Shown here: positions 4,504 to 63,906 of the stretch, piece by piece
How the letters are laid out: each line of letters starts with the position of its first letter
Numbering within the stretch: the first letter of the stretch is position 1
NCBI GenBank assembly: GCA_000934665.2
Contig: KZ537960.1
Coordinates: 124,001 to 188,000 of the forward strand
DNA length: 64,000 bases
Source of the DNA: Catajapyx aquilonaris
Taxonomy: Eukaryota
Direction of reading: 5' to 3'
Position numbers and translations under genes: made by a program
Notes under the pieces: model-generated
The model's database searches: none
Told to the model about the DNA's origin: nothing
What the model saw: only the letters and a program-made list of their open reading frames with translations

Positions 4504-4571
<68 letters not shown>

Positions 4572-10313: not shown

Positions 10314-11911
10314 ATGTCAACGGCTGAGGAGGTGCGATTCATCTGGCGCTCGGCTGATGCAGTCTGTTTTGATGTTGACTCGACTGTTTGCCAGGATGAG
10401 GGAATGGATGAGCTGGCCAAATTTTGTGGAAAGGGGAAAGAAGTCACTCAATTGTAAGTTACAATGTTACATGCACCTTAGTAATAAATTTCTACTTATG
10501 ACATTATATTATTTTCTCAAGTAGAAAAGTGAATGGATAATAATTAACAGAGTGGACGTAAATAGCACAGTAACTTGCTTCATGATGTTATGGACACCGT
10601 TGTAACGTTGACTCTACTGAACAATTATAATTTTAAATTTTATCATGTCTTGATGTCCCACAATTGGAACAGTGCAGATGGAGATATGTCTTAAAACACT
10701 TTATTTCAGGACCAATGAGGCTATGAGTGGTGGTCTTGATTTTCGAGAATCACTTGGCAGACGCCTGGATATCATCCGGCCCCGTCTAGAACAAGTCCGT
10801 GATTTTGTCAAGGGCAAGCCTCCCAAGCTCACACCACATATCAAGTAAAACTCTTTTCATTATTGGCAATTAGGTACATTGGGATTGCCAAATTTTAGCT
10901 TGATCCTCCCTCTCAATTTAAGCCAATCTAGAGCCCATTTACAAATCCAATGTAGCCCTAGCATTAGGTTAGGTTTATATTATTTTAACAAGCATGTGAT
11001 TCTGGTACCTGCTGGGAATTGGGTACCCATTTGTTAATTACCTGGGTCCTTTCTCTAGTCTTAATTAGGAAGTTAAATTTGCAAATGACAAAAGATATAC
11101 CAACCCAAATGTTTCTTGCATAACAGGGAACTAGTGATAGAACTTCATCGACGGAGTGTCCCTGTATATCTGATATCTGGTGGCTTCCGAGGCATAATTG
11201 GACCTGTGGCACTGATGCTCAATATTCCTCTGGAGAATATATTTGCCAACAGGCTGAAGTTCTTCTTTGGAGGTGAGTTAATACCTGTGGCATGCTTCTG
11301 TTGTTCATCGTTCATGATAAAGGGAGTTGCACCTTTGCTAATTTTATCCACAATTGTGCTATAGGGGATGGGGAAGCTAGGATATGGAAAGGTCATTTCG
11401 GAGTTTTACAAAGTTTGACTTTGTATGTTTAATAAATTGACTGGTATTATCGTAAGTGTTGGTACAATACAGTAAACTTTGGTCATAATAAGTGGCTTCA
11501 GTACCATCTATCGAACCTTGTATCACTTATTGGTGTGGGGAAATGTGATAATTTATAGTCTGAGCCATATTCTGCTACTTTGTAAGCTACAGAGCTTGTG
11601 TGCTTTAGGTGGCCTAAAGCAGTCCACTCTAACTGTGCAACATTGCAGGTGATTATGCTGGATTTGATGAGGAAGAGCCCACATCACGCAGTAATGGCAA
11701 GGCTGAAGTGATCAAAGTTCTGAAGCGCAAGTTTGGCTATGGCAATGTTGTCATGATTGGTGATGGCATGACTGATCTAGAGGCCTGCCCCCCTGGTGAT
11801 GCTTTCATTGGATTTGGAGGCAATGTTATGCGTAAGGAAGTGCAGGCCAAGGCACACTGGTATGTCACTGATTTCCGTGAGCTGATTGACTCTCTACATG
11901 GACCAGAATGA
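10314..11911 (+). CDS. PSPH: Phosphoserine phosphatase (HAD superfamily)
   Basis: Exons about 10314-10453, 10710-10844, 11127-11272 and 11649-11911 splice in frame. Motifs: CFDVDSTV (HAD motif I), LISGGF (motif II), GKAEVI (motif III Lys), MIGDGMTDLEACPP (motif IV). Confidence 0.95.
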
Positions 11912-23200: not shown

Positions 23201-23690
23201 GGGTTTCTCTCCGGAGAGAAGCCAAATCAGTTGATGTGTTTCTCTCCTGAGCGAAACACATCTGCTGAAACGGTTTCTCTCCGGAGAGAAGCACATCCGC
23301 CAATATGGTTTCGCTTCGGAGAGAAACCAGTTCAGCTGATGGGCTTCTCTCCGGAGAGAACCACATCAGCTGAAACGGCTTCTCCCCGGAGAGAAACCCA
23401 TTAGCATAATTGGCATCTCTCCGGTGAGGAGCACGTCAGTCGACAAGGCTCCTCTCCGGAGAGGAGCCAATTCAGTTGATGGGCTTCTCCCCGGAGCGAA
23501 ACCTTGTCTACTGACATGCTCCTCTCCGGAGAGATACCAATTATGTTAATGGGGTTTTCTCCGGGGAGAATCCATATCAATTGATGTGCTTCACTCCGGA
23601 GAGAAACCCATTAACTGATTTGACATCTCTCCGGAGAGAAGCCCATCAACGGATATAGCTCCTCTCCGGAGAGAAACACGTCAGCCGATA
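23201..23690. repeat. Tandem array of 14 x 35-bp palindromic units
   Basis: Each unit has a core close to GGTTTCTCTCCGGAGAGAAACC followed by a linker close to CATCAGCTGAT; the period is a constant 35 bp. Confidence 0.93.
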
Positions 23691-40600: not shown

Positions 40601-43019
40601 GATTACCTGGCACAATTTGGAGGGTATGGGTTTCAGCTAACGTGCACTAATTGCTGGTATTACTATTGATCGTTAGTGAGGGTAGCGAGCGAAATTTATA
40701 CACGGAATAGGGAGGGATTATAATAATGCGCGACCATATGAGATTGGGGCACCAGAGTTTGCGTGCCACTGGAACAATAGGTGAGGAGCCGATAATTGGT
40801 GTAATTGCAAAATACCGAAACATGAGACTCCCGATGAAACAGGATGGTTTGTTGAACCTTCCCAAGTTTGAACGCAATAGACAGGTTCCAAGGCTGATCA
40901 CATACTACGTAAATACCACTATTCACATAATGTTGGCTACAGACCGTATTTTTTGGGGAAATATCCGTTCGCTGGCGTAATTGGACCTGTGTGCAAATCG
41001 AATTTGGAAATCTCTCACCCAGTATCTAGGCCGCACTATTGCGTCTGTAAAACACCATTTAGGGACGACAGACACATGTTCCTGAAATTAACCACGGTAA
41101 GAAAACGAGCGATAGGATGGCTCCCCGAAATAGACTTAAGTTTTAGAGCCAAGCAGCCGCATAATTTTCACAGCTCAGTAATTTTCCCCTGGGAGGAAGT
41201 GAAAAATATATATCTCCCTTTCCATTAGTCTTCCTCGAATTTTTTTTATCGCTCAGCAGTCCCGTAAATCTGCCAGCTAAGGATCCTAATCCGGGCGGAA
41301 TGTTTTAAACCGGTCTTATATCCCCTCCCCAACTCCAAGACGGATTTCCTTCCACCAACTTGGCAAATTGTGTGGCAATGCTTTGAGAAGACCGAGATAT
41401 ATCCAATCTGGAGATGGTCGTATCCATCACAATAAGGCGAAAAACCCATGCAACTAAAAAAATAAGTACAAAAAAAAACTGCAAATGGACTTTTCTGGCT
41501 CGTGGATCATCGAGTGGAAGGTCTGCACAAATTGCTCCGGGTCTGCGTTCGTCTCAGATATCGGCTGAAGTCCTGAGGGAGAAAAAAGATGGTGGAAAAG
41601 GGGCGTCTTGAGGAGTCGCCAACCTTTACAAAATGCAGGCAAAGTGCTGAGAAGACTCGTCATTTATCATTTGGAGCGACTACAGCCGGCTCCACACCCG
41701 GTCCGTTCGGATATTAATATGTGAAAATGCCAGCTCAGAAGGGTTGGTGGTATGGGTACTGTGGGGGTCGTCACCCCGGTCACACTCTGCTGGTAGCGGT
41801 CCCCCCCAAAAAAGCAAAACTAGAGTGACGTACATAACTAATGAACCGAATATGTTGTTGTTGTAACGAGAGATGAAAACAGTGGCAATGAGACCACTTG
41901 GGAACAGCTGGGCTGTATCACAAGACATATTATGATGCCCCTCCTGGTATGTGATCATTACACAAGGCATATCACAGGCACCTGCATAATTCATAGCGAT
42001 TGCGCGAGATGTTTGACATGCACCCTGATTGTGAGAAGGAAAGTTCGGTACAGTTGAGTGCGTGCTTTGAGTATTGAAAAGGGGGGGCTGAAGAGCAAAG
42101 ATTCCATAATGATGTTAATGAGGAGGAGGCTTTGATCCGGCGGAAAGTTGCAGCTGGGACTTTCCCCCCTCTAGAAAATGAAAGTCGAGAGGTGAGGTAG
42201 CCCTGATTGATGCTGTTGACTGCATAAAAGGAACGTCATAGTTACACCTGGAGGTACAGTACGTTGATACATATGAAACTGGGATAGGACAGTGATTTAT
42301 GCGACAAAATGACGATTTACGTTGGTGCAACAGCTGTCGAATCCGTGGCCCCGGATAAATTAGATTGGAGCAGGCAGGCAGGCAGCAGCCTCCAGTTTTG
42401 GATTTCGCAGCTCTTCGATCCAACATTGCTGCAGGCGCCTGCTTCCATGGGGAGCTATGCTGGAGAATTATAACGTCGCACGGAGCTCGCCGCCAGCAGC
42501 CGGCCTGTATATACCTGGGGAGTTGAACCTGACAGCGTCAATGACACAAACTAGGACCAGGGAGTTTCTGCCGAGGGCTGCTGGATAACTTGAGGGCAGG
42601 CAGACAGAAAACATGAATAAGCTAGCCTCAACCGAGGCTGCCACTGAATAGACCACAAACAGCGTAGCCTCTTTCTCAGAAACTCCAATGGATTTGGCAG
42701 GGAGTGTCCCGCAATTTGTCAAGTGTCAGGAACAATTGTGGTTCCATAAAGTTGATTACACAAAGGCAGCAACTCAGGACTGGTAATTGCTAATTAAGTG
42801 ACGATCTTGGGATTATAAATGAATAGTGATAAGTTTGCCCCTTAGTAACGAGCCATTATACAGGCCTGAAACTTTGGCCATAAGTCCCAATTATCTCGCA
42901 CGAGAGCGTTTTGCAGTCGTCGGCTCGTGAAATAACCGCCTTGTTTGTGGACGGTAGATAGGGCAGAATTCTACAGTTGGTGACCTTCGCTCCAATTCAC
43001 CCAACTTTTTCCTAAGAAA

Positions 43020-43061
<42 letters not shown>

Positions 43062-46000
43062 AACGAGATAAGAGAGAGGTTCTAACGAAGCTGCGTTTGG
43101 CTGAGAAATATTGGGAGCTTAGTGTTGCTGAAGACATAATACTAGGGAGGGTACGCACCTTTTGTCGTGTGTTTCGTAATGGTGTGTGGGCGAAGAGAAA
43201 GTTGAGGAATCCGGGATGCTTGCTGGGCCTTTTTCTTGGGCGATTGGGTACCCCTGAAGGCACGGCGAGGGAAATCAAGCTGCAGGCCGTGAAAAGAGCG
43301 TGGTTTTAATTGGAACGGAGTCGGAAGGATGGTGATTAACTGGGTCGTTTGCCTTGCCTCCTCGTTAAACCTTAGAGATAAGTTGGGGAGATGGAGATTT
43401 TTGCAGTGGAAGCTCGAATATTTTGCCTGAGTGAGCAAGCCGTTTTGTAATAACAGAATCGAATTCCCCACCTTTTTTTCCTTAGCCAGGAAGCCATGTC
43501 TCTTTTTCCATATCAATTCCCAGATAATTATTACTCATGCAATAAAACGATAAGTGCTATAAACTAGGGGCAACAGGATATCTAAAACACCGTACTGTGT
43601 TTTTCGGGTGTACTCCCACGTTGTTCGTAGCACAATGAAATATCACCTGCGAATAGGGAGGTATCCGGCAACTGGACCCATTACCTCAACTAATTGACGC
43701 AATCATTATTGTTGATGGGAGCCGAATAGTTTGGAGGGCACATGCACGGCAGGGGGGGGGGGGGTTTGGCAGTGAATTTGCGGCGGAAGAGAAGCAAACG
43801 TGTGGCCCCGTCACGTTCTCTCCATTACGCTTAACCCTCCATGAAATCCGTCGTCTGTCAAATCTGGACATGCCTGGGATCAGATATGCATGAGAGTTAG
43901 GAATATATTCTGCATATAATTTTTTTTTGTGACGAAGCGTCCGGGTCGGATATATGATTCAGACACACCTGGATTAAACCACATTATCTGTAGATAATAG
44001 TATAGTCATACCGTAATCTAATCATGACTGGTGAATATGACGGATCCAGTATGTGTGTGAGGAGGTCCTCGTGTGAATGGGAGTTGGTGCTGTTGCAAGA
44101 GGGAATCAAATTATGTTGGCAAGGCTTTATTCGTGGCGATCCCATGGAGCCTTACTAATGTGATCCTTTTGTGCTGTTGCAGGAGGAAGGCGAGGAGGAA
44201 AGGAGCATCAGAATTGGAATCTCAAGGCGAATCTCTGGAATCGGACGACGAGGTGCCTCCGTTGCTGAGGACCATCTCTAGTGATCGTGAGGAGGACGAT
44301 GCCAGGGACTCCAGGGATGAGGTGTTCGACGTGGATTCGGGTGAGTGGGTAGCCCGCAGATTAGCATGTCGGCGGATTGTCATACATTGGCGGCGAGGCT
44401 TGTAACCATATTTGGCCTAGCTCCCGTACCCATTGAGGTCAGGGACACGCATAAATACCTCCGCAAACTTCGTTCCGGTTGGTGTTTGAAGTCGGTGCAT
44501 GACTCCTGTGGGAGTGTATATACACCGAGGCGGTTCCCTGATGATATGAAAGTAAATGTAATGAGCGTGACGCAATGGGCATCGATCGGCCTGCGGGGAA
44601 GATGTATAGAGAGGGCAAGTGGCGCCAGGGGGGGATGATGGATGTACAGTACACAATGTAAGATGGAAAAATGGCCTGTTTCCACAGTGCCTAAGATTTG
44701 ACTGAATTCTTCTCCCCTCCAAGGAGCATCCATCTCTGGACCATTTCCAGACGGTTGATCTTTCCCTCCATTTGGGAGGGGAGCCCTGGCGCCAGGACAG
44801 CGCCAGGCGCCTTCCTTCCTGCCCTTCCACCTCAGATCGAAGATGGGTTAATCCAGCGCACTCCACAGATTCAATTTGGCTGCTGCCGAGGCCCTCCACG
44901 GCACATCTTTTCGGCCAGAATGCAGCTTCTCCTCTAGATAAAATTCGGCCCGATTTCTCTGGAGATCCGGATTAATGGCGGGTTTTTGCAGGGAGAAAGC
45001 GGGGGGAGAAGGAAATTGAGGTGACAAAAGCTGGGTGTATTAGAGAGACAAAAACCGGATGCGGGCCTTGGCAGTGATCATTGCGAACGGTCAGTGCCAC
45101 TTTCCCCTTGCACGACTTGAGTGGTATTAAAAGGTCTTAACCAAGTACCTTCGACGGACCGGGCGGGGTTGTCAAGTTGCGTTGGAGTTTAAATCATAAC
45201 CGGTCCTTATGTGAAGAAAATATACGAGCGGTTTCATGACAGAAAGCAAAAAAACCGCAGCCAGGTTATTTTCGGTGCTGACTACTTTCTACGTCAGTTT
45301 TTTACTGGATTTAACGGCTCTTGTTTGTGTAAGGTGACTTCATGAAAGAGGGCGGTATTCTGGATACTTTCACCGGGCGATTAGATAAGCGCCATCTGTA
45401 GCTTGATGGGCATTGAGATGCTAAGGGACGATTGGGTGACCCCGAGAATGAGCTAAATTGTGGGTTGTTTATGAGAGGGGGTCTACATACAGAAGCACGT
45501 GCGGGGCTAGGCATCGGTAAACAAATGTGTGACACATCCTCTGTGGATTGCCATCCCTTCCTGAAACTGGAGACCTTTCAAGCTTATCGGAGGAAAATCT
45601 GACGTCGGTACTTCCACGTAAGATACTGGTTGTGGCTTATGTAGAAAGTGTAACCTTGCAGGTGCGTGTTAGTGTTGGTTGACAAAGTGTTTTCTAATAC
45701 GGGCAACACATGTGGGGTACAGTTTGAATCAGAATCCTGGAAATCAATGTGGCGTCATAAATTCGGACACAGTGAAGTAACCAAGCAGGCGTTATTCCCC
45801 AGGCACGAAAATGTTCTAGGGAAGACCACGTCCGCATAGTTTACTAGATTCACACATGACGCCCCCTTCCATTATTTTTTTTTTCATTATTAACGGAGAC
45901 ATGGATGCTCGATATCAGCAAGCGGAGTTAACGACCCGGTCACTTGGCATCGGCTTGAAAATAAAACGTTGCTCAGTCAGCGTTCCAGAATTCCTGGCTT

Positions 46001-49000
46001 AGTGTTGGATAGGTAAGAGAGGAGACGAGGCAAGCATAACGGTTCTGCTTGCATCAGCATGGAAGGATGAGAGGAATAAAAGTGTCTCCAAGTTTTTCCT
46101 GTTTGGAGAGGCGCCTAAGTGCTCCACGTGGTCGTTTTTGTGATGGGGGTTGTTGGCGACTTTTTTGACGTAACACTTGCAATAATGCCCTTTTGGAGTA
46201 GGTCATGCTCAAGGACGAGCTAGTCGCACACAAGGTTGCGTTACTTGTCCTGGCACACATTACCCGGACAGTGCACCGGGGTGGATTATGTAGACTGAGG
46301 CAGGGGTCTGGCCAAAATATTTGCATACGGCGAATCCTGGTGGAAATGAGAATATCCTGGCGTTTTGCTTGTAGGCGAATATTTCATTAGGACGGGGTGT
46401 CCGAGGAATTAGACCGAGAGCGAAGGGTGCATGTGTTTTGTAAGTCAATTTCCGATGCCTTCATGTGCTGGGAGATTGGTTTTAAATGTGGAGGAAGTTG
46501 GGGTGGATGACATCATAACATGTTCAGTGTCCGGAAGACTAAACTGTTAGCCGACATGATTAGTAATCGATTTTGTGAAGGCCCGTTTCACTGTTAGTGC
46601 CATCTTAGGGAGTAGCACAACTGTGGGAAACATATGCTGGAACCGTATTAACATAAATAGAAGCAGGAGCGAATATCATTAGTGTAAGCTGCGCGTATGA
46701 AGCTGTAAAAAACGGGCAGTGTTTTTACAACCTGAGCTTACGTGCCATGTAAAATGCGATATGAGTCGGACCACGTAGGGCTTAGGGCCTCATATGTAAT
46801 TCAGAATCCTTAATGAAGCGCGGCTTGTGTGGATGTGCAGCAATTGAACTAGTTTAAATATGTGTAAATGCCAGTGACGTCAGCAAACTTGTGGACAGTC
46901 GCGGTGATAAGATGGGCGTTCTCAGTACAATGTTACAAAGTTGGTTCGTGTAATGCCTTGTAATAGTGTATGTCATTCATAATATTATTATCATGCATTG
47001 TGTGTGCGATAAGGAGGTAAAACGTGCTGGTATTAACAGGGACGGGAATGTGTGCGGTTTTATTTTCTTAGAAAACGGAAGTGCATGTACTGTACAGGTT
47101 AAAAATATAGTGTACCGGTACCTATTTTTCTCATTGCGGTTTGGCGTGCGACCTACACACAATTTACATTGTTAACCTATTTTTTTGAAATAAGGGAATG
47201 ACATCCTTCTTGTTTGCTGTTCATGCAGGGTAATTACGCCCCGTTACACGTATCACCCCAGGTGTGCATCATAAAACACGCCTGCAGACAATGCACGATG
47301 CTCGCTTTCTTATGAGGTTAATATTGCTGAGTGATACAGCATTTATTGCGGATAAATCCTGCGACGTCCCTGACTTCAATTGGGATTATCGCCGCCCCTT
47401 TTGAAGCGTGACAAAGTGACACACTCCGATTGTTTAGGAAATCTAATACAGAATGGGTTTTTGTGGGAGAATCAATCACTGTCACTTTCGTACCCACCTG
47501 CAACCAGCCTGATATCTTCAAGCATGCGAACATAAAATATCAAAAGTCAAGGAATTCCGTGCACTAGGACAGAACCGCAATAAGCCCTCGTTCCACTTTG
47601 GCCAGACAGAAACAATACAGGTGAAATATCAGGGGTATGATCTGTACCCACTAATGTTCAGAGTATGTATGTACATGGCCGGAAGTAGCCAGATGGGCAT
47701 CCTCACCTGCTGGCCCATGGGCAGCTGCATTCCTCTTATGATTTTTTATACCTCTTTTGGGGGAAAAAAAAGCCACCCTATGTAACCCACTCTCATCTGC
47801 ACATTCACTTTCCACCTGTCCCTCTTTGGGAAAAGCCAATTATCCAGCTGTTGGCCGCATCCACGTTCATCTCACCTGAATGGTATTGGGACGTGAGGTA
47901 ATTGTGATGTGACTGTCATGGCCGGTACTCAATCTCAGGGATTTTCTGACCGGATGTGCGGGATTCGATTTTTCCCCCCGTTTTTTTTTTTTTTTTTTTT
48001 GGCATGATTTCTCCCTGCAACGTGGTATCCGTGCCTATTGATTATCTGCACGATCTGGCCTGCCCATTGTGATCGATTCGAACTGTAGGTGCTGAATGGG
48101 ATATAGTGCATATATTAAGGACCACTCCCAACTATGCACGTGAATTACAGCTCCGGTTTTTCATTTGTCTAATTGCCTCATTCGCGTGCGAGATTTTTTT
48201 TTTTTTTTTTAAGCGAGGGAAATGTATACGAATCGATGTTTTTCAGGGGCGTGTGAAATGGTAGGTCTGAAAGCTTGCGAAATTTGCAGAGTCAGCGTTT
48301 AATAATTTGCAGCCGCTTAAGGGCTGACAACTAAACGGTTACGCGAATATTCTCACATGGGTCTGGTTTGGTAAATGGCCACTTCAATTGTGAATGGGTC
48401 ACAACCAGTTCATCGGACACCACGTCGGGGACCCCTTGTAGAATATTATATTATATAACTGTATATTATATTTATTTCAGGGGTGTATAGCAGCTCGGTG
48501 GAGTCGACGTCGGCGATGCCTTCGACACCTCCGACACCCCCGGGCGGTAAGAAGTGGAAGCAAAGCGAGGTAGGTGTTTTTCCTCCATTGAATTCGCCAT
48601 CTTAATTAAGACGGAAGAAGGAGCCGCAAGGGGCTTTATCAGTTGCAGCAGCATCCGGGAAACAGGCCCCCATCTGCCAATACTCGAGAGATCCTTATCT
48701 ATTTTGGGGCTGCAGACCCTTTTTCAGTAAAAAAATATGTACGGAGCAACGGAGGTACCGACCTCAGAGTAAATGTCAGTGTGACAAGATGGGTGAACTT
48801 TAGAGCAGGCGCCATGGTATAGACGGGAAAACTGCGGTTTGGGTAATGAGGCTAGAAGGTTAGGACGGCTGGGATGATTGGCGAGTTAAAGTCGGACAAT
48901 GGAAGTGGGTAGGATGGCAAAGTGACAAGCCGCCCACATATGGTTCGCATGTTTTTGACCGCGATAGTACGTTTTTATTGAGACGGAAAAAAAAAGGATG

Positions 49001-52000
49001 AGCTTCTGGGCGATTCCCATTGCTAATAGCGTGCGAAAAGCCTCCTGCAGAGGTATTCGAGGGCCATTGGGAAGTAGGGTCCCACGCATTTGTCTAAAGG
49101 CCAGAAAATTCCTGTTGGCGGTTCACCTTCCGCGTTGTTAGTGGCTGTCAAGGTGGAAGAAAGAAAACGGTTCCTTCCATGGCCTCAAGTCTTTTCCGGT
49201 CAACAGGCCTTCGTTGGTTCTAATACTGGGGCAAATATTTTGGTTTGCTTGGTTTAGGAGGGGGTCAACAGCTAAATGTACAGTATGTTGCAAACCACCC
49301 CATTTAGAAACTGATAACATGGAGGGGTGTAGTGATAATTAATGAGTAGGATGATGCTTTTATTATGATAATGTGGGTGGGGATTATTCAGAGGCATGGC
49401 ACTAAGGCGCCTAAGGAGAGGACCAGGAGAAGAATTAGTAATGGATGTTTTGTCTTCCACAGGATGAAGTGAAAGATGAAGCGGAGAGGATGACCATGTA
49501 CAAATGTATCATCAGTAGCATCATTGAAAGTGAAAGAATATATGTAGAATGCCTCAGCGTTATGCTTCAGGTAACTATTTGCACTCGTAGTGTTATTGGG
49601 CAAGCAATACATCGCCTTATCAAATTGTAAGTTCAAAAGGGAATGATTTTGAGTAAGGATAGCTGCCACCATCTGATCCATAACTGGAGAATTTCCTGTT
49701 CTTGCCCCACTTCTCATTTGGAACTCAAGATATTTCCTTTGCAATGTAAAGGTGACCACATTTCTTTTCAGTATATGAAAGCCCTGAAGGCCACTCTGAC
49801 CACATCTCAGCCTGTGCTCACTCAGGATGAATTTGGAGCTATTTTCTTCAAGATCCCAGAATTGCACGCGTTGCATCAGAGCTTCCTGGAAGGCCTCCAA
49901 AAAAGGACACAAGATTGGGATGGGAAATTCACCATTGGTGACCACTTCAAGATGATGGTGAGGGCTTGCCTTAAGGAGCTGTTTCATATGTGTGGGCAAA
50001 CTCACATCATGTATGCATTGTCAACAGGCTAACAAAATCAACACATACGGCTCGTTCCTTCAAAATTACGGGCGTGCCATTGACACGGTGAGGCAGTGCA
50101 GTCAGAACAACGCCCAGTTTGCAGACATAACAAGAGACATTCGGCTGAGATCACTGCAAGGTCAACCTATGTCACTGGAGGACCTTCTTCACAAACCAGT
50201 TGCTCGTGTGCAGAAAAATGCCTTGGTCTTGCATGTGAGTTGGATGAATGCACACGACTGACTATAGTAACCTTTCCAACAGCTACATGCTCCTAACTAT
50301 AATCTTTTTCAATGCAGGACTTGATCAAATACACACCTGAGAGTCATCCTGACAACAAAACCTTACAGCAAGCTTTAAAAATGATGCAGTGTTTTCTAAA
50401 TGAGTTCAACATGATTCAAACGGAAACACTCTTTCCTGTTAGTGGCTCTTTTGTACTTGTTTAATATTAGCAAAAAGGGGGAATGATTTATATCATGATT
50501 TGTTTTACAGTCCCATGATAGAGCCCAGAGGCACCTAGTGAAAAACTCATTTATAGTTGAACTCTCTGAGGGACATCGTAAACTTCGACACCTTTTCCTC
50601 TTCAATGATGTGATTGTCTGTGCCAAGTACAAGGTAGGAGTGATAGTGGCTCACAAGTTGTATCTGGTAATACTAAATGGGGTGCTTTTTAAATTCAGGC
50701 CTCAGGGAAGAATGAGAAGTACACCTTTGAGCTCAAATGGTACATTCCATTGGGAGAGATTGTTGTGCAGGAGGAGCCCAATTCAGAACCAAGGGAGTCT
50801 TCTCCTGTCAACCTGGTAGTGCTAAAGTCACAAGCTTCCACTGTGCGGGACCAAATCATGAGGCAAGAAAGTAGAGAAGAAAAGGTAAGTCAAATAATTA
50901 TGTACTGCTTACCTTGTGAAGTTTTTAGGTGGCCATATGCCTGCATTTTCTCCAATTAAAAATTTATGCATGTGATATCTTCTGCCTTACCATATTTGGT
51001 AATATTCTACCAGTGAGACATTAACTCTTACAATTATGTAGCAGTGTACTCATTTTCACTAATGCATAGTACTTTGTAATACTGTACCATTGGCCTATGA
51101 GTACATAATATCACTATCATATCACTCTATAATCACTCCATATCCTGAGACATGAACATGTGATAGTTTTCTTGCACTGGGCAGTCTAGATTTTATATGT
51201 TGCCAAATTTCAGACTTTCCGGATCCATTTCAATCAGGAATAGTTGGAATTCATTTGGATGGCTGCTTCCTATTCTAAATGAACTGAGACAGGTGCAGCC
51301 ACCCGAATATTCTCAACTTGTTTGGGGCCATAGACCTAATTAGGCAGAATATGAATGCACCTTTATATGTATAAAGAGACCTCCTAAGAAGTGTTGTATT
51401 AATGTCAAATGATCTCAGTCACTTGGAATTATTTGCTCTCCCAGTTTTGCAATTGTGAATCTAAGGATTTTTCTTTCTTCTCTGTAACAGAAGCAAAAGC
51501 CAGGAGGGAAAGCAGAGAAGCATAGGAAGAAGCTAGCAGAGCTGGAAGCCCAGCTGGTGCTGGCATCTCCAAACTTGGTATTCCGAGTTGGCCATCGCCA
51601 TGGAAAGATGTTTACATTCTTCTTATCATCTGAGTTTGAGCGTGCGCAGTGGTTTGAAGCCATCCAGGTCCTGCAGGTGGCCCACACTCCCACTGCAACT
51701 GTCCCCACGCTCAACATGTATGAGCTTCAAGCATGGATCACTGCCTGCCGTAAATTTCTCAAGACCAACATGGGCTCATACCTTCTCCTGTCTGGTAGAG
51801 ATGAGTCACTGTTGGTAGGCGACCTGCATGTTCTTATAGAGGGTCTGCAGGGACTCGCACGCCCAGCAGGTGAGATTAACTGTTCACCTTAGCCCTACCC
51901 AATCTTAGTGCAGTCTGACCGTAACTGAAGTCTGTGCTCCAGACTTGTATGTGTGCTTGGAGGTGGACTCGTATGGCCACTACTTCAGAAAGGCCAAGAC

Positions 52001-53481
52001 CAAGATGGTATGCAACAGCACTGAGCCTGTGTGGAACCAGGACTTCATTGTGGAGCTCGAGGGCTCTCAGAACCTCAGGATTCTGCTCTACGAGGAAAAC
52101 CAGTGCCAAGGGACTCTTCTCAGAGGGAAGGCTACCTTGGAGGTATTTAAATTTGGACTGATATTTTTTGGGTGGATCTAGGCTCGGACAGGAGTATCAC
52201 TGTCATGTAGGAGAGTTGCAAAATATTTATGGATGCAAATGTGAACTCAATTCTTCTTCATGCTGCATACCATTACACAGCATTAATGAAACAATAGTAA
52301 CATTTGCTAATCGCAAAACTGAGCGACACATTATCTTTATTTTCAGTTGAGCAGGGTGTGGCTGAATGAATCCACTCTGGATCAGAGGATCCAGTTGCAA
52401 GAATTTGTGTTGTCCCTTTCTCTAAAGTTCATCCCCTCAGAAATGACACTGAGAAGAGTACCTGCTGGAAAGCCATCAGGATTGTTTGGTGCCAAGATTC
52501 ATCATGTTTGCAAGTAAGTGCTGTGTAACATTGTGGTGGGAAAGCGTCACTCCAACATCTTCACTATAATTTCAGGCGAGAGAAGCGTTCTGTCCCATTC
52601 ATAATCACCAGTTGCATCAGAGAGGTTGAAAAGCGGGGGATGAATGAAGTTGGAGTGTACAGAGTATCTGGTTCTGCATCTGATGTGTCACGCTTAAAAA
52701 AGGCTTATGAATCAAGTGAGTATCTGTGCTAGGCACTTGTAGCCATGTTTTCACATCCATTTACTTGGTGTGCAGATTCGTATGAAGCCGAGCAGATGCT
52801 GAAGGATGTGGACATACACTCTGTGACTGGTATCCTCAAGATGTATCTTCGTGAACTGCCAGAGGCCCTCTTCACTGACGACCTGTACCCCCGCTTCTTT
52901 GAAGCCTTCAACCAACATGAGCTGGAACTCAAGAGGAAAGGCCTTCTTCAACTATTTACCATTCTCCCACATGCTAACCAATGCATCATCATTTACTTGC
53001 TGGATCATATGGTCAGGTGAGTTGCACTTGCATTTACAGTGGGAAGTGTTCGATAGCATTTCCTCCTGTGGTATGTAGCTATTGTTCACAAGGTAATAAG
53101 GAGGCCAGGTGCAAAGCAAGCCCATACTGAGCATTTCTATTCGCACATCCTTAACTCTTGTTGTGCAAGGGAACAAAACAAGTGCATGTAACCACACAGA
53201 AACAAGAGGGGTAATGTGCCTGCTTTGTGTACTTCAGAGTGAACCAGCATGAGGGTCACAACAAGATGTCTCTTCACAACTTGGCCACCGTGTTTGGGCC
53301 CACGCTTCTGCGTCCTGGCAGCAAGTCAGACAGCGGCGTAGGTGCTGATCTGCTGGCAGCTGGAACAGTGGACGTTATGGCCCAAGCAGGAATCCTCTAC
53401 TTTTTTATTCAGAGGCGTGCAAGGGGAGAGAATTTCCACACCCCAGGTTTGGTGATGGATGAGTCAGGAGTGTGTAAGTAG
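37637..53481 (+). CDS. BCR: BCR/ABR-family RhoGEF-RhoGAP (oligomerisation, DH, PH, C2 and RhoGAP domains)
   Basis: N-terminal [16 protein letters not shown]...[15 protein letters not shown] resembles the BCR coiled coil (an in-frame ATG also lies at 37598). Exons 37637-38237, 38668-39247, 44183-44340, 48481-48569, then an exon cluster from 49463: DH ([12 protein letters not shown]), PH ([14 protein letters not shown]), C2 ([16 protein letters not shown]), GAP ([26 protein letters not shown]). Confidence 0.92.
43023..43057. repeat. (TC)n microsatellite
   Basis: Dinucleotide run of about 17 units in a BCR intron. Confidence 0.95.
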
Positions 53482-56458
53482 GTCAGTTAAGGGCAGATAC
53501 ATGCTTTTGAAACATCTGCCAAGTCAAGTTGTATAATCCTGAGAAAATGAAGAGATTCAATCAGGTACAGAAATCAGGCTGTAAGGAAATTTTGCAGAGT
53601 GTACATAACTGACAATCAGTATGCTTTCTTCTTTTTCCTACTTAACATTACCAGTGATTAGATTGTCCAGTGTCTGTTAGGGATAGGTTTTTGCGGAGTC
53701 GTGAGGTACCAAATTTAAAATAGGAACGACAGCATCAAGTGCTGCATGCCCAAGTGAATAGTTGTTATGTAAGTGATTTTAAATGTTCTCAGGCTGCAAC
53801 GTGTGGCCACCAAGCAGCTCTCAGTTGACATCAATCCTGCAGCAGGTTGGTTGTCATGCCCAGGTTCAGGATGCTGGGCAAAAAGGCATTAAGGTCAGCT
53901 AAAAAGTTCAGAGTTTGTGACAAAGGTTGTAAACAGCATTTTCCGCATCATTATATATTGATTTACACTGGTCATAGTATGAGCCTCGTTGTTATTCAAA
54001 TTATGAGAACAGGAGGCTATTCACCTCTTCTGTCATTAAAACAAATGAAGCCACAAGCAAGCTATAGAATGTGGCCTTTTTGGCTTCACAGGCCAAAAAA
54101 ATTGTCCTTGCGACAGGAATTCCAGGTTTGGAGACTTCCCAGTGCCTTTTCCCCTCCCCTCAGCACTGCCAACCGCCATGTGCTTCCTCAAAAATGCAGA
54201 TAGATTGCCGGCTATTTTTCATGTTCAGAGGCACGACAAGGCCCTTTCTCTTGTGATTCCTATTTGCAAAGTCTCCTATAAAGCGCATTTTCTTCACCTT
54301 CACTTTACGCTATTTCAAGAAGGCATTTAATATGTGGAAACAGCCATTCCTGTGAAACAGAGTTTAAGGCCTGTTGCTGCTGTCTTGGGTATTTATTTTG
54401 AGAGTCAAAGCGCAAGCAAAGGCGCTGAAGTATACTGTAAACGGAAAAAAATCATTGTGTAGTCCTGTACAAAAGTAATGAGCAAGAAGTAAGTGATTGT
54501 AATCTAATGCTTGTTCTTTAATATATTTTATAATGTCATAAAAATAGGCGAGATGAACTCTTGCAAAATGAAGACAGTGGAAAACGTTAAAATTTGTTAG
54601 GAAGCTAGTCACATGTGCATTGTGTCAGCGTGTTTTTGAGTGTGAGGTTGTATTGTGGTATGTGCCATCATCAAATTAAAGCAAGTGTACCAAAGTATTA
54701 CTGTTGCTCAGTTAGTGGTCTACAGGAAGATCTAATAATATATATGCACCCTTCTATTCAGCTAGAAGTACTCAGTACTATTAGGTTGTCAATTCCATGC
54801 TTTCCTTTGCCTGGCGATGAATGAACAGTTAGCGAAACTGTGATACAACTCGGCAGACACTAGTTACCCCCATTTTGTGATCCTTCAGCATGATGATGTC
54901 TAGCTCCACTTTTACTCGATATCGAATTTATCTGGTAACATGGTAGTCCATGTCATTCTCATATGTCACATAAAGATGGTGTAGAAAAAAAAAAATTGAA
55001 ATGGCAGAGATAATGTGAAGAAAAGTAGATTTTCTTCGTATCGTAATAAAATTTTTATTACCTTGATCTCCCTTGGAGTTTGTAATTTTTCTGACCATTC
55101 ACACAGTTGCACATTCTAAATTGCACTTATGCCCAGTTACACCAACCAATTTAACTGTTAATTAAGAGCTAACTAAAGCTCAGCACCCCCATAAACAGCA
55201 GATTGCATTCCTCCAACATGATGTTCGTAAAGGTTTGTTGAATGCATTTGCAGAAGCATTTACCACTGATCGTTTGCTGTGTGTAGAAACTTGAGGATTG
55301 CTGAAAGAACTAAGATTGGATAGGATTTATTATTTCTGCACATGTCAATCCACTGCAGCATAGACAAACAAGATCCTCGGAGATATGGTTTGGTGCCAGG
55401 TTTACAGGATGATCCATTTCTGATGAAACACCCCTGCGTTAAAGTGTGAAGGGAAGGGGTTCAATTTTGCCACCTTCTGTCCATCAGTTATTCGTCGTCC
55501 TGCCAATGTATCATGGTGTAAATGGTGTAAATGCTATGCAAATCTGATGAAGCTCTTATAATGACCATGTCGCATGTGATACCTGTAAAGGCAAGAGGAG
55601 TCTAATTTGACATATGTGGAATACTTCGGGCAAATATTTCATTGCACCAGTTGTAAACACATTTCCCAGCGTAAAAGTGCACATGGAAGTACATATCGAG
55701 CATTACTTGCCATGTACTGTACATGGCAAGTTTATCACTGGCAAAGACTGCGAGCATCGTAATTAAAAATGGCACTGGTTATCATAGTGTATGCAGTAGA
55801 GCAGCTGGAGATCACTTGATTTGGTACGATGAGCCAGGCTCTCTTTCGATGTGATTTATTTATTCATTATACATCGCATAATTTATTTAAATTTTTTCTC
55901 ATTATTTTCATGGTGTTTGTTGTCCCAGGTCACAGATGGATAAGTGGTCCATGCTGTACATTGCAATAATCTGTACTGTATTAAATCCATGGCACTTTAA
56001 GGTCAGAGCTACATATGTGCCAGCTGATGTGTTTGCAAAGGGCATGAAAGGTGACACTAATGCATTTAATGCACATGCATTTAAATAACTTACTTGAATT
56101 TAAAATTCAAGTGTCCGATTTGAGATGTTACAAAAAAAAAAAACCCGTTCTGCACTACTCTCTGTAACATCAATATCAAACATGACATGCCGTCAAAGCT
56201 TACATTACTTGCTGAAAACTGTTAATGCCTGTATATTGTCATTCATTGCGGCATTTTCCACTGTGTTCTGCACAAAGTGCCAGGATAACAAAAAAATGAA
56301 CATGGAAATTGTATAATAAATGGATGATTCAGTTTTGGAAATAACCGTGAGTTCACGATTTCAATTATATCTGGTACCCCTGTCAGAATAAAAGGTATGC
56401 AACTTCGGCTCTTTTTCAGACATTCTAGTGAAGACACTTTCCAATACCAAAGTTTGTC

Positions 56459-56735
56459 AGGGGCGACACGGTGGCGGAGTGGTTAGCGCTGCAGCCTTCC
56501 ACCTCTAAGGTCCCGAGTTCGATCCCCGGGTCGGACGGAGGATTCTTATGTGGATAGAGTTTCGATGGGTTCTCTCCGTGTTCGCGTGGGTTTTCTCGGG
56601 GTTCTCCCGTTTCCTCCCACTATCAAAATCCATCACATTACAGGCAAATGATTAAAATCGGTTATTCAAAAGATGATCCCCTAAGAGGCCCAAGGAGGCC
56701 TAGCACGGGGTATCCATTATTATTATTATTATTAT
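56459..56735 (+). mobile_element. tRNA-derived SINE with V-domain-like core, (ATT)n tail and 14-bp target-site duplication
   Basis: Pol III A box TGGCGGAGTGG and B box GTTCGATCC; core GTTCTCTCCGTGTTCGCGTGGGTTTTCTCGGGGTTCTCCCGTTTCCTCCCAC; (ATT)7 tail; TACCAAAGTTTGTC at both 56445-56458 and 56736-56749. Confidence 0.9.
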
Positions 56736-57414
56736 TACCAAAGTTTGTCTCATTAGGTCACATCCACCGAGGACAAGATCTGTCGTTGAGACAATAATGT
56801 TGAACATCTCAGCGTGTCAATCAGGTGAGTGTAAAGTAGATCTTCAAAGCTTGGTTTTGAGCCACATGCAAAAACCGCATTTCAAAATCACATTTCGCAC
56901 AACTTTATTAATTTTTTTTTTCCAATTAATTTTTGAAATGGGGGCGATTCATACTCCCGCTCCTTTTGGGCAGGGAGTGACGTCATATTCGAACCCTCCA
57001 ATGGCGAGTCAGAAACGTGTGAGATCACCTGGAACATGGTCGACCTTGGTGTGTCACAATGCTGTGCGGTGTTTAGGAGTTCCGAGTATTACTAGACCGT
57101 GGGTATTCCCCACTTTGGTTATTTCCTTGCACTTGCTGGTAAAAGCCACGAGGGCAGTCTGGACGTAGACCTACTGTGGGTCATCAGATGTCGTGGATCC
57201 ACTAGACGTGGCGCCGGCACCTGCACCTTCCTGCTGCTGATGAAAACATTGCACCATGTTGTGCAACCACTTCTTTCCTATATAATCCCCCTTCATCATC
57301 GACCCTGTGGTGATAGCACGCCAGACGTCACTGATAGGTTGCCAAGCACCTCCAGGACTCACACTGCCCAGTGCTTGCAGGTCTTGACTGAATAATACTG
57401 CAGCAGGTGCAGCC

Positions 57415-60400
57415 ATGTCCAGGCAGCAGCAGCAAGGCACCAACTCCTCCTCAGGGGGGGCAGACATGAGTATTTATCGCATCCCACCTTACCAGTATGT
57501 CCATGTGCTCGACCAGACCACCAATGTCACCAGGGTCGAGACTGGGCCGCAGACATTCATTAGGAGGGAGAATGAAAGGTACCGTACCTTGGCGTTCATC
57601 TGCTGTGAAACTTACAAGTGCAGCCTAATTACTTGCACCTTTCTATTTGTAGGGTTGTGTCTGGGCCCCAGCAGATGATAGTTGTTCCTCCAGGAACCTA
57701 CTGCACCATAGAGAATCCAGTTTTGAGAGGTGCGGAAGGAACGGTGCTTCTTGACAAGTATGGCCAGGCTCGATTGTGCCATGGAGATGAAGAAGTCAGG
57801 CTGGAGCAAGACCCATTTCCACTCTATCCTGGGGAGGTCCTGCATGTCAAAGTGACCAAACTGCAGGTGCTCTTTCCATACCAAGCCCTGAGGCTGTTTG
57901 CGAAGAGGGACTTTGATGATGGAAACGCCAAGAAAGTGGCTGGGGACGAGTGGTTGTTTGAAGGCCCAGGTGAGGGACAGCCCTTATTGGTTCACATGCA
58001 TAGTGTTGCAAAATTGTCTCGAGTAATATTGATATGCAATCATGATTATAACCTAACAAAACACTTGCACAGCCATGCTAAAGTCTGACTTTTTTAGGCA
58101 CCTACATACCTCGCAAGGAGGTGGAAGTACGATGCCTTATAGACGGTGTGGTCATTCACCAGAATGAAGCCTTGAAACTGGAGGCTCAAAGGGACACTGT
58201 TGACAGGGATGGAAACCCAAGAGTGACTGGGGAGCAATGGCTAGTGAAGAAGGTTGGCTCCTACTTGCCTGGTGTGCACGAGGTCATGGTTGAAGTCGTC
58301 AAGGCACATGTACTGACAGAAAAAACTGCCATAATGGTCAAGGCAACCAGCAGCTTTGTGGATCAGCGGAAGATTCCCAGGAAGAATGGAGAAGAGTGGC
58401 TGATCACATTCTCAGACATGGAGACCTACATTCCAGATGTGTATGAGCAGGTGATGGGTGTGGTCAACATCACCACCCTCACTGACAGGCAGTACTGCAT
58501 CATATGCAATCCAGTGGATGAAAATGGGAAGCCACAGCTGGGGAAGAAGAAACTGGTCAAGGGAGAGACTTCGTTCTTCTTGCAGCCACAGGAGACCCTT
58601 GAGACTGGAATCAGGGGCATTTACGTCATGAGTGACAATGAAGGGCTCATTTTGAGTTCTCAGCAAGCCTTCGTAGACACCACTCAGACACCTGTAAGTA
58701 GCTGTAACACAATAGTGATGTGCAATCCCAGGGAACTATTTCGTCACTTTTTTGTCAGTTTTCCTGGAAGAGTTATCAATTAATGATTTTATGAGGTATC
58801 TACATTTTAAAATGCTTTTCAAGTCATAGAAATTTTTCCACTTGTTGCATTGTTGAGTTTATGACTGACCGGCACAAATATCTGGCGATGCCCAATTTTA
58901 CCAAAATATTACTGTGAACAAAAATGCAGCGTAAAATTAGTATCATAGTGAATTAACAATGACGCTGCCACTTTTTTTTTCTGATGCATTGAAAACCCTA
59001 ATGCGAAATTTGGTCTCACCAGGCTATCCAGCGAAAGCCTGGTGACCGGTGGATGATTGTAGGACCAGCAGAGTATGTCCCACCAGTAGAAGTGGAGGTG
59101 ATCACAAAGCAGAAGGCCATCCCACTGCATGAAAATGAGGGAATTTATGTGCGAAATGTCAAGACAGGTCAGGTGAGATCTGTCATTGGCCATACTTACA
59201 TGCTGACCCAGGATGAGGAGCTGTGGAAGAAGCAACTGCCATCCTCTGTGCAAGAGCTACTGATGACTAAGCACGACCCAGTTTCTGACCGAGGAGTGCA
59301 TACAGCTGCATTGTCTCAGCAGACGGCGCCGAAGAAGGGAGGGGAGAAAACCAAGGAGTGGGATAGCACCAGGGTGGTCACATTTCAAGTTCCTCACAAT
59401 GCAGCTGTACAGCTCTACGATTACAAATCTAAGAAGTCCCGGTGAGTTATTTGAATTATGCTTATGTTGGGAAAGAAGGGAAAGGCAGCAACAGCAACAG
59501 GTGTCAATTTCACATGTTTTCTGCTTACATATGCAGCAACACATCTGGCACTCTTGCTCCATTGTAGTTCATGCCTGTTTGCATATCGGGAGTTCAATAT
59601 CTGTCATAAGTACAATGAAGAAGATGATGGTGCAATTTATGTAGTTGCTCAATGGAAATTTGGAGTAAAAGAAGCCGTAGGTGGACCCTATCTTCATTGA
59701 CCAGACAATAAGTTGTTGTAGGTCACACAGTGCACTCTGCAGGTGTGACATTTCATAAAAAGCAGTGGAGCAGAATGTTGATGTTCATCATTTACTTTGA
59801 ACTTGTAGAATTGATACCTTTATTTACCATGAAGTTCTCAAATACTCTAACAGATTATTATTTACTTACAGCGTTGTATTTGGACCTGACCTAGTGATGT
59901 TGGGCCCAGATGAAGAGTTCACTCAGATATCCTTGTCAGGAGGGAAACCAAAACGTCCTAGTGTCATCCGCACCATGGCTTTACTCCTGGGGCCTGACTT
60001 CTGTACCGATGTCATTGTTGTGGAGACTGCCGACCATGCCCGCCTGTCCTTGCAGCTGGCTTACAACTGGCACTTTGATGCGGTTGACAGATCAGAGGCC
60101 TCAGCAGCTAAGCTGTTCAGTGTACCCGATTTTGTTGGGGATGCTTGTAAGGCCATAGCATCAAGAATTCGTGGAGCTGTTGCTGCCGTTCGCTTTGATG
60201 ACTTCCACAAGAGCAGTGCTGAGATCATTCGCACCGCTGTCTTTGGTGTTTCTCCAGATAAGAATGAGCCTCGAAACAAGCTGGTGTTTCCACAGAACAA
60301 TCTGGTGATTACTAGTGTGGACATCCAGAGTGTGGAACCAGTGGATCAGCGGACACGAGATGCTCTCCAGAAGTCCGTCCAGCTGGCCATTGAGATCACC

Positions 60401-61187
60401 ATCAACTCTCAGGAGGCTTCTGCACGTCATGAGGCACAACGGCTAGAGCAGGAAGCTAAGGGGAGACTGGAGACACAGAAGATCAAGGATTCTTCTGCTT
60501 CAGAGCGAGCCAGGAAGGATTTGCTGGAGCTACAGGCAGCCAGCTCTGCTGTGGAGTCTACTGGGCAGGCTAAGGCAGAGGCACAGGGTAGGGCCGAGGC
60601 TGCCAAGATTGAGGGGGAGGCAGCTGTTGTTCAGTCCAAGCTGAAGGCTGAGTCCACCAGGATTGAAGCAGTACGTCCACAGGATCAATTCTCTGTTTTA
60701 TCTAAATGGCCAGATATTCTATGGCTGTTAATTACAAATTTCTCATTCAACTTTGTGCGAGTTGCTTTTGATTGTCACATTCATATCTTGCTAGCAATCG
60801 GAACTGGAGCGCCTGAATTTGGCCCGCCAAGCCGAGATTGAATACCTGAAGGAACAGGCCGAACTAGAAATCAACAAGGCTAGGGAAATGGCCAAGGTGG
60901 AGGTGGATACTTTCAAGCAGATGATGGACGCTGTAGGACAAGACACACTGAAAACATTGGCCACCGCTGGGCTGGACCAACAGGTGTGTACAGGAATTCC
61001 TTACAGATCTGTAGTTCCTCTGACCACTGTCATTTAATGATAAAATTAATTTTTGCAGGTGCGTCTGCTTCAGGCTCTCGGGTTGAAGTCAACTTTGATC
61101 ACAGATGGGCGCACTCCCATCAACTTGCTAACAACTGCCAATGGCCTTTTGGGCAACGCATTGGAAAAGGCCCATGGCGCTTCCTAA
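57415..61187 (+). CDS. MVP: Major vault protein, complete, 870 aa
   Basis: Seven exons 57415-57578, 57653-57969, 58098-58693, 59023-59441, 59872-60670, 60795-60983 and 61059-61187 total 2613 nt, in frame. Vault repeats ([41 protein letters not shown]), shoulder domain ([21 protein letters not shown]), cap helix ([13 protein letters not shown]) and C-terminal [11 protein letters not shown]. Confidence 0.97.
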
Positions 61188-62947
61188 TTCTGTACTTAAA
61201 TTATGCAACTGACAACACTAATGTGTTACATCTTAGATGCCTTAGAAGTATTGATGGGTCTTGAGGAAACGAAAGGCGGACACCTATCTTGCAGTACCAC
61301 AGATGGTTCCCATGTCTCGAATCATTCCAAGTTGAGTTTTACCATGCCACCCTTCTTCTTCCAAACACCAAATACTAATATTTTCTGCAGCCTTGGGTTA
61401 TTAGCGTGATTGGCTTCGTGGTACAAACAACGGATGACAGAAATCAATTGCTGAAATTGATTTAGGACTGGGTACCATCGTTTTGGTGAGAATTCCCAAT
61501 AGCAAGTTCGATTGCTTCCAATTTGCCTGCTCAAGGCTGTGAAGCTCATACGCTGTGTAAAAACTGTCAATTCTTGCCAACCAGTATTACATAATTCATT
61601 AATTTGCAGTACCTGGAAGGCCCTGTCCCGCAGAGGAAATTCTCTCATCCGTAAGTGGGACAATCAGGTGGGATTGAACTTTGCTGATGAAAATTCTCAC
61701 TGTGATGCTGCATAAGGCTTCAGTTATTTTTTACTTTCTTCCACCACACCATCTGGAGTTTTTAACTTTATAATAATTATTACATGCAAGCCAATCGTCA
61801 AAGGAAGTTCCCCTTGTTAGCCTTGCTGAACTCCGTCCTGCGAGGTGATTAGCCAGGATTCACGTCATGTCCCCTTGTATTAAACTAGTTGGGGTCAGAC
61901 TGATGGGATACATCAAGAGAATGAAAATGTAATTATCTGCTTCATTCCCCTTTTCACTGGCTGCCAGATTGCATTACAAGCTCCCACTCTCCTTTTGGCA
62001 AATGATGCAATTGGTAATGGCACCTGAGAGCTTTTACATATGTGTGGGAATTGGATCACTAACTTGAGGTCTATTCGTTTATCAGCCTGTGTAGTGTTAC
62101 GCGACAGTGCTTGTGGCGTCGGTGTAATGTAATAATGGTACTGTAAGCCAATGTGAGGAAGGCTTTGCACTGGCCTTGTACAGTGCATTCAACAATGCTA
62201 CAACTCCAGAGCAAATGAATTGAGTACCTTGAGGCCAAAACACCTCTTCAATGAATCTGTTGCTTGAACTGGTGTTACATCAACTGGTAAACAAATAGAC
62301 CTAGAAGACCTGTATGAATTGCCAGGATGTGTTGATTACATATATGCCGTCTAGCGAAAAAGCTGTATCTGCAATAATGTTGCTTGTTGTGCTAGAACAC
62401 TGAACAACAAAGACTTATCCTCCTGCCAATACACACTGCAGTCTGAAGTAATCTAATAGAGCTGGTCGCATGCAAAGTGGGCCTTACTGTACATTGCAGA
62501 TGGGTAGATAATAGTGTACGTTTTAATTATGCAAAAAATTGTGATGCCACGCACATAGTGCACCAAGTTTTAGATATGCAATGACAACGGGACTTTTACC
62601 TGCCAACTATGGTACTATTGGGCTCAGGTTGTTTCTAATGTATTCTATTTCCCAGTGATATTACTGCTTGTTACATTTGAAATATATAAAACGCTGCTGT
62701 TGACCTTATCCCAAGGACATGATTTATTGACCTGACTTCCCTGATAGTGTAGATTACAAAGGCGGCCATATTGGGAGAAAAATATTTATTCACGCACACA
62801 TCTGCACTCTTATTTAAATAGAACATCCATCACACATCTTTGGTTGAAAATATACAGTTAGGTACAATGCTGGAATGGGAAAATAGGAACCAGTCTCGGT
62901 TGTTAGATGAGCTTTTTTTCAAAGGATATGCAGGGCAGGTGGGGGTT

Positions 62948-63583
62948 TCAGACTCGCTTCTTGCCGTCCAGCACGTAAGTAAAGTCGTCTCCGTAATGGT
63001 ATTGAGCAGACCTGAGCATCCGGATCTGTTTCCAGGCACAAACAAGGAGAACAAAGTTGACTAGGTAGGTCGCAATGCACACGACACACATGCTCTGTAT
63101 TATGAAATACTGAATGTAGCCCAGGTAGAGTGACATTAAGTTGGACGCCACCGTCATGGCAAACCGGAGCCGAGCCACCCAAAGCCACGGCAACGGACCT
63201 GAAAGAAACCACGTTGAGCCTGGGACACACTTACGTAAAACAGACACTCACCGGTTGCAGCAAGGACGCAGTAGAAAATGATTCCGTAGAGGCTGTTGGG
63301 CTGGTAGAGCGACGACTTGTCCCCAACCACCTTGTTGACCACCCCGAACCCCTTGCCGTACCTGCAACACATTGTCCTGTACCTGGCACTAGTCAAATGC
63401 ACCTGCAACTCACTTTGACATGAAGTTAGCACTACAGCTGACACCAGGACTGATGTCGCACATGGGCGTGTATGTGACATCCTTCTCCATGGTGGTCTCC
63501 ACATGCAGGGCGTACACCGACAGCATCAGTCCTAGCACGCAGGTGACCAGGTGGACAGCGGTGGTCCCGCAGCAAGCAGACAT
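62948..63583 (-). CDS. VKORC1: Vitamin K epoxide reductase (VKORC1/VKORC1L1 family)
   Basis: Exons 63583-63414, 63361-63252 and 63198-62948. Motifs LSVYALHVE, loop cysteines CDISPGVSC, YGKGFG, QPNSLYG and active-site CVVCIATY. Confidence 0.93.
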
Positions 63584-63906
63584 CCTGTGGGCCTGAACGT
63601 ATGTGCGAATGTGCAGACAGGTCGATGCTATCCTCCCGGCAGTGCAGCGCGGACTGTTTGAGTGAGCCTTCAACGCCTCCACTGGCAGGCCGCGTGCAAG
63701 GCCATACCAGTCTGGTGTAAACAGCTGACAGGAAAAAGTGCACAGGCACATATCACTGGGCGGTGCTTCGTACCATTATCGTGCAGTTGGAGGCATCTCG
63801 GCTGCTGATAAGGACACAGGGATTAGTGTCTGGAAATAACGAGGGTAGGAGGTGACGTCTCATTTGCATTTAGATTGTGTGTCTAGTTGTATTGTCGTCA
63901 ACAGGC

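Follow-up and report, generated by a model that had tools for sequence, protein, structure and literature searches.

The 64-kb stretch of contig KZ537960.1 analyzed here (the window, meaning the whole of that DNA) carries a real and intact major vault protein (MVP) gene, spliced and integrated in the host genome, at 57415-61187 on the forward strand. At a probability of about 0.8, the best explanation is an MVP ortholog that belongs to the host, was inherited vertically, and is transcribed, the host being a pancrustacean that stands beside the sampled winged insects and is most probably a wingless hexapod. An MVP in an insect relative outside Pterygota is already in print and is not new; what the window adds is a gene model with five of its six introns confirmed by spliced contigs, set among neighboring genes of matching composition.

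Gene model, protein, and transcript

The gene has seven exons (Table 1), first visible as seven MVP-coding pieces in the stop-to-stop frames of the + strand between 57.4 and 61.2 kb. Joined, they make 2613 nt, or 870 codons plus a stop, and no internal stop is found across that reading frame. The introns measure 74, 128, 329, 430, 124, and 75 nt, all six with GT..AG ends, and the one after exon 1 is in phase 2. A tblastn search of the window with the spliced protein returned a single locus, plus weak internal echoes from the repeats. The original prediction, made from the letters of the window, had been of an 870-aa MVP with six canonical introns, and its coordinates, length, and intron count were all reproduced.

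Five Pfam families (Vault, Vault_2, Vault_3, Vault_4, and MVP_shoulder) match within exons 2-5, all above their curated cut-offs. The shoulder family (PF11978) is matched over its entire profile (positions 1-118 of 118; E 1e-52, 177.6 bits). All seven exons align in order to the solved human MVP (11dr_A), over the ranges given in Table 1, and exon 5 matches solved MVP at E 4.4e-117. The N-terminal array of vault repeats (R1-R9) is accounted for by the Pfam matches together with colinear human MVP residues 6-477, and a cap helix and cap-ring C-terminus are predicted from the alignment of exons 5-7 to the human protein. Since all exons align in order to that structure, repeats, shoulder, cap helix, and cap ring can be read as all present and in sequence, as originally proposed, and these matches to solved shells are enough to settle the fold. 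The domain order is identical to that of human and rat MVP (PDB 11dr, 9z4w, 4hl8/4v60, and 7pkz) and colinear over residues 6-852. Two differences are seen, namely an extra 13-17 residues at the N-terminus if the first ATG is used, and an alignment gap of about 9 residues in the linker between shoulder and cap helix. Of 64 MVPs compared, 3 were partial; the other 61, near-full-length and ranging from sponge proteins to that of a lizard, show 59.6-65.3% full-length identity, the lizard protein 61.4% over 854 residues.

The position of the start codon bears on the N-terminal difference. Alignments to solved MVPs begin only at residues 17-19 of the predicted protein, with exon 1 residues 17-54 corresponding to solved MVP 4-41, and an alternative in-frame ATG at 57466 would give a protein of 853 aa starting where the solved MVPs start. 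Upstream, the leader holds five further ATGs, so transcription may begin elsewhere than at its first base.

A search of public sequencing runs found four DNA-type runs from one sample (X1-X4), containing 0.98-0.99 of the words of the window, and a fifth (X5), from a different study than X1 and under the same organism label, containing 0.63 of them; no run found is listed as RNA. Contigs of X1 and X5 were mapped to positions 56800-61900. Those from X1 are colinear with the window. Those from X5 skip introns 1, 3, 4, 5, and 6 (74, 329, 430, 124, and 75 nt) exactly at the predicted junctions, the exon 1-2 junction among them, and X5 depth is zero in two bins lying wholly within introns 3 and 4. 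Because the X5 contigs skip five of the six introns where predicted, a spliced MVP transcript exists; the intron-less contigs also lead us to infer that X5 is RNA-derived. For intron 2, no bridging contig was found among those from X5. Nothing is missing there, since the human alignment stops at residue 148 for exon 2 and resumes at 150 with exon 3. Expression had been suggested as a check on the original prediction, and the contigs spliced at five of six introns are in its favor.

Beyond the stop codon, the only poly(A)-like signal in 61188..61900 is an ATTAAA at 61879. The X5 contig from exon 7 extends some 800 letters past 61900, toward a convergent VKOR gene. The 3' ends of MVP and VKOR may overlap, or the assembler may have merged them.

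Table 1. Parts of the MVP gene in the window, with matches to Pfam families and to solved human MVP (11dr_A)
Feature	Coordinates	Strand	Description
MVP 5' leader, minimum	57027..57414	+	388 nt; 57027 is the start of one spliced X5 contig
MVP exon 1	57415..57578	+	Start codon, 13-17 aa N-terminal extension, start of repeat R1; human MVP 6-41
MVP exon 2	57653..57969	+	Vault repeats; Vault_2 5e-27, Vault 4.5e-09; human MVP 45-148
MVP intron 2	57970-58097	+	128 nt, GT..AG; sole intron bridged by no contig
MVP exon 3	58098..58693	+	Vault repeats; Vault 2.5e-30; human MVP 150-339
MVP exon 4	59023..59441	+	Vault repeats; Vault_4 2.8e-19; human MVP 350-477; X5 junctions on both sides
MVP exon 5	59872..60670	+	End of last repeat, shoulder domain, predicted most of cap helix; human MVP 480-754
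MVP exon 6	60795..60983	+	Predicted end of cap helix; E 9.6e-11; human MVP 757-817; X5 junctions on both sides
MVP exon 7	61059..61187	+	Predicted cap-ring C-terminus and stop codon; E 4.7e-09; human MVP 820-852
MVP 3' untranslated region	61188..61900	+	Unbroken X5 contig cover; contig runs past 61900 toward VKOR

Placement of the MVP and of its host

Identity to the best match was considered as a taxonomic guide for the MVP and rejected, the values being flat across phyla. Exon 5 is 74-79% identical alike to sponge, coral, mollusc, echinoderm, myriapod, and amphioxus sequences, the exception being one trematode at 57%; best matches are useless here because MVP evolves so slowly. Coverage of exon 3 as a query is 100% for the 13 named arthropod matches and 96-99% for nearly all named matches from other phyla, the exception being the bryozoan Bugula, also at 100%.

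Trees gave a clearer placement. A quick tree of 62 rows (3 partial or odd ones having been dropped from 65) put the window protein in a clade of 17 whose named members are all arthropods (Shimodaira-Hasegawa-like approximate likelihood ratio test, SH-aLRT, 98). In a careful tree of 32 chosen rows under LG+C20, it lies inside a clade of 15 supported at 99/95, made up of the window protein, eight chelicerates and myriapods, and six rows without an organism name, the named rows again all being arthropods. The chelicerate and myriapod proteins in this clade (Limulus, Centruroides, spiders, Hemiscolopendra, and Chamberlinius) are 62.8-64.7% identical to the window protein over about 850 residues. 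The window MVP falls inside neither of these two groups, and is sister (98/97) to three proteins derived from metagenomes or transcriptomes (P0154, P0170, and P0172), all among the rows without an organism name, which sit behind a stem of 0.64. An MVP tree across Arthropoda had been proposed as a further check, and this position inside the arthropod clade, with 59.6-65.3% identity to metazoan MVPs, supports orthology as opposed to a grouping with bacterial, phage, or SPFH relatives. The long branches of the window protein and its three sisters suggest faster evolution of MVP in this part of the arthropods.

The host was placed with APEH, encoded at 28050-25314 on the minus strand. A word-based search with a 226-aa APEH exon gave five matches, and the four that carry names are all insects. 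A HMMER search gave 348 matches at E up to 0.001, 20 of which received names via clusters, and a quick tree of 65 rows (matches P0207-P0299 with 550 aa or more, together with those that had names) put the window sister to an insect clade of 13 rows. A careful tree of 35 rows, picked after the quick one, recovered Pancrustacea, window included, at 100/99. Within it the 13 insect rows (Ischnura, five Hemiptera, a thrips, a butterfly, two wasps, and three without a name) form a clade without the window at 99/95, and window and insects together are supported at 94/88; barnacle, mantis shrimp, and woodlouse sequences lie outside. Approximately unbiased (AU) tests rejected placing the window with the 12 non-odonate rows (p 0.0045) or with the odonate (p 0.0099). 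Since the window APEH is sister to the sampled winged insects and nesting among them is rejected, the likeliest host is a wingless hexapod, or else a crustacean closely allied to the hexapods. On this gene a wingless hexapod is the probable identification; another pancrustacean is possible and distinctly less likely, and a winged insect of an unsampled order would be a surprise. The insect-like host of the original prediction agrees with this position next to the winged insects.

Several points weigh against the gene being a transcribed MVP ortholog of such a host, or against the details given for it. The host placement depends on one gene, APEH, which could be a paralog, and its sequence in the window was pieced together from tblastn segments with a thrips protein as the guide. 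The APEH tree includes no named wingless hexapod, mayfly, remipede, branchiopod, or copepod rows, and the groups for the AU tests were chosen after it had been inspected. In the MVP tree the end branch of the window protein is 0.76, against a median of 0.29 (about 2.5 times as long), and its grouping with the three sister proteins could be due in part to long-branch attraction. As to the transcript, no library kind is recorded for X5, and the window itself may derive from X1-X4, so that X1 is not independent of it. The start codon at the first ATG (57415) is putative.

Published distribution and alternative readings

Views on vaults in arthropods have changed in the literature. No MVP was found in arthropods by Daly et al. 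(2013; PMC3762200), who wrote that insects seem to be without vaults, the view on which the original prediction drew. Slinning et al. (2024; PMC11219742) overturned this with MVPs in 41 ecdysozoan taxa. These include the japygid diplurans Catajapyx and Occasjapyx as well as Archaeognatha, Zygentoma, and copepods, and the loss is placed on the stem of Pterygota rather than being ancestral to all hexapods. No credible MVP ortholog is reported there for tardigrades, Malacostraca, or the Daphnia and Artemia groups, and just 15 of 4816 pterygote assemblies had significant matches; the two full-length pterygote MVPs recovered were trypanosomatid-like and were set aside as probably symbiotic (Slinning et al., 2024). 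A full-text literature search for "major vault protein" with "Pterygota" or "springtail" led to PMC11219742 only, and another search gave no additional MVP paper among its 15 rows. The original prediction had gone further, taking the gene, if the host is a hexapod, to mark a newly recognized vault-keeping lineage against a background of vaults lost in insects. That background is outdated, the loss being ancestral to Pterygota only, and because MVP is reported from diplurans, Archaeognatha, and Zygentoma, the claim of novelty fails; the clade indicated for the host is one in which MVP is already documented (Slinning et al., 2024). The published proteins are of the kind described here. They too are full-length MVPs in pancrustaceans outside Pterygota, and the position found for the host fits among theirs (Slinning et al., 2024).

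Against this record, the identity of the host is the first matter to weigh. A winged insect as host, for example a mayfly or a member of another early-branching order missing from the sample, would make this the first credible pterygote MVP. The window APEH is indeed closest in identity to pterygote proteins (46% to thrips over 653 columns), the named hits of the word-based search are insects throughout, and the APEH rows offer neither mayfly nor wingless hexapod for contrast. The insect clade that excludes the window at 99/95 nevertheless spans Odonata, Hemiptera, Thysanoptera, Lepidoptera, and Hymenoptera besides its three unnamed rows, both nested placements tried were rejected, and the few pterygote assemblies with matches, among which the full-length MVPs are trypanosomatid-like, also tell against it (Slinning et al., 2024). 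A winged-insect host is accordingly rated as improbable, and a similarly low chance covers the wider case of either such an early winged order or a hexapod order without recorded MVP (Collembola or Protura). Still less credible is an origin of the MVP block outside the host chromosome, from a contaminant, symbiont, prey organism, or misassembly. There are precedents, with MVPs resembling those of trypanosomatids in beetle assemblies and those of rotifers in isopod transcriptomes (Slinning et al., 2024), and the join between BCR and MVP (53.5-56.8 kb) lies outside the interval to which contigs were mapped (56800-61900). On the other side, the MVP groups with arthropods at 99/95, in agreement with APEH, and the same organism label is attached to X1 and X5, from two separate studies. 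A single 6335-nt X1 DNA contig covers 59012-61900 and continues about 3.4 kb over the place of VKOR, joining the 3' half of MVP to that region. The MVP also carries gene-body CpG depletion matching that of its neighbors. Its observed/expected ratio is 0.36 (exons 0.36, introns 0.33), and the gene bodies of PSPH, an F-box gene, APEH, and an HPS4-like gene have 0.39, 0.32, 0.28, and 0.25; an intergenic stretch reaches 0.79, and the window overall has 0.53. The original prediction had relied on this resemblance to its neighbors, and had argued that the gene is unlikely to be a retrocopy or contaminant; by its introns, splicing, composition, and position in the arthropod clade it is no retrocopy and most probably no contaminant.

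With the MVP taken as the host's own, the remaining question is what its product does. By homology to the solved shells, copies would pack side by side through the coiled coil of the cap helix and through the repeats, and two half-shells would meet N-terminus to N-terminus in a hollow vault of 78 subunits, as in rat and human MVP. The title of a 2001 paper by Stephen et al., cited by Daly et al. (2013), reportedly has vault-like particles assembling in insect cells that express MVP alone, and because of it self-assembly without partners is plausible here by analogy. Alternatively, the intact protein may no longer build cytoplasmic vault ribonucleoproteins and may be mainly secreted or structural, as proposed for salmon-louse and barnacle cement. 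The louse protein LsMVP is abundant in extracellular cement and MVP-like proteins occur in barnacle cement; neither vPARP nor vault RNA turned up in the louse genome (Slinning et al., 2024), and the long terminal branch of the window MVP (0.76 against a median of 0.29) would suit a changed role. Against such a replacement of function, every region that the shell requires is present and aligns to the solved MVP without large gaps, and the louse protein sediments as vaults too, which makes the two roles compatible (Slinning et al., 2024). A mainly secreted or structural function in place of vault building is for these reasons considered unlikely; by analogy with the salmon louse, a secreted, cement-type role might be an addition to the vault shell or an alternative to it.

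Gene neighborhood and bearing on vault loss

The surroundings of the MVP were surveyed with a Pfam scan of 118 open reading frames (ORFs) hand-picked from the 198 of at least 75 aa. Matches were obtained for an SLC6 transporter, a CHCH protein, an EF-hand rhomboid, APEH, a longin protein of HPS4/CCZ1 type, and BCR; PSPH was read from its motif and is below the Pfam threshold. BCR, with oligomerization, RhoGEF, C2, and RhoGAP domains, ends about 4 kb upstream of MVP, and the convergent VKOR gene lies about 1.8 kb downstream. None of the 118 ORFs scanned matches the TROVE, NACHT, WD40, or PARP families. Vault RNA (Rfam RF00006) gave no match in the 64-kb window, at the gathering score or at E up to 1, with the proviso that arthropod vault RNAs may not fit the model. 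By these scans of the window, it holds none of the probable partners named in the original prediction (PARP4/VPARP, TEP1, and vault RNA). Across all of Rfam the window has no match at the gathering score; relaxing the limit to E up to 1 brings in five sub-threshold rows, and vault RNA is not among these. Mvp2 of the salmon louse has a TEP1 gene beside it on the opposite strand, a different arrangement from that in the window, where the neighbors of MVP are BCR and VKOR (Slinning et al., 2024).

Two features of gene order were noted. PSPH adjoins the CHCH-domain gene (10128-11911 on the + strand and 15326-15619 on the - strand), and BCR, MVP, and VKOR follow one another at 37190-53480, 57415-61187, and 62951-63775. 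Human PSPH and CHCHD2 are neighbors on 7p11, and human MVP and VKORC1 are both on 16p11. The PSPH/CHCH and MVP/VKOR adjacencies may reflect ancient bilaterian microsynteny that this arthropod has retained. Within BCR, the first large exon (37190-38257, + strand) matches the Pfam Bcr-Abl oligomerization domain at frame residues 154-210 (E 1.6e-05; 25.2 bits, with a cut-off of 23.1). This coiled-coil domain is mostly discussed in connection with the BCR of vertebrates.

A few other observations concern the rest of the window. A hairpin at 23264-23370 matches Rfam mir-515 on both strands (43.2 and 34.7 bits, well below the gathering score of 68), with a weaker second copy at 23575-23655 on the minus strand, about 300 nt away; it is probably a palindromic repeat rather than a member of that primate microRNA family. 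Just upstream of MVP, at 56425-56800, are overlapping frames that resemble the spurious ORFs of tRNA-derived short interspersed nuclear elements (SINEs) in arthropod annotations. As a taxonomic clue this SINE-like stretch (about 56.4-56.7 kb) was dropped, there being no second copy in the window and no tRNA genes by ARAGORN; the only part of 56425-56800 repeated in the window is a microsatellite, also present at 4504-4570. Single N bases interrupt the assembly at 6714 and 22683.

The gene itself is a textbook, canonical MVP ortholog, and its value is modest, as a splice-confirmed MVP gene model from an arthropod branching next to the winged insects. Should the host after all belong to an early winged order that was not sampled, or to a hexapod order without recorded MVP, the gene would move or split the inferred loss event; in the former case it would be the first genuine vault gene of a winged insect, spliced and among host genes. 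On the preferred reading, of a host most probably among the wingless hexapods, the result agrees with the published placement of vault loss in the pterygote stem lineage, as opposed to hexapods at large (Slinning et al., 2024). Such an animal could be the nearest vault-bearing comparator to the insects, against which to ask what was given up with vaults.

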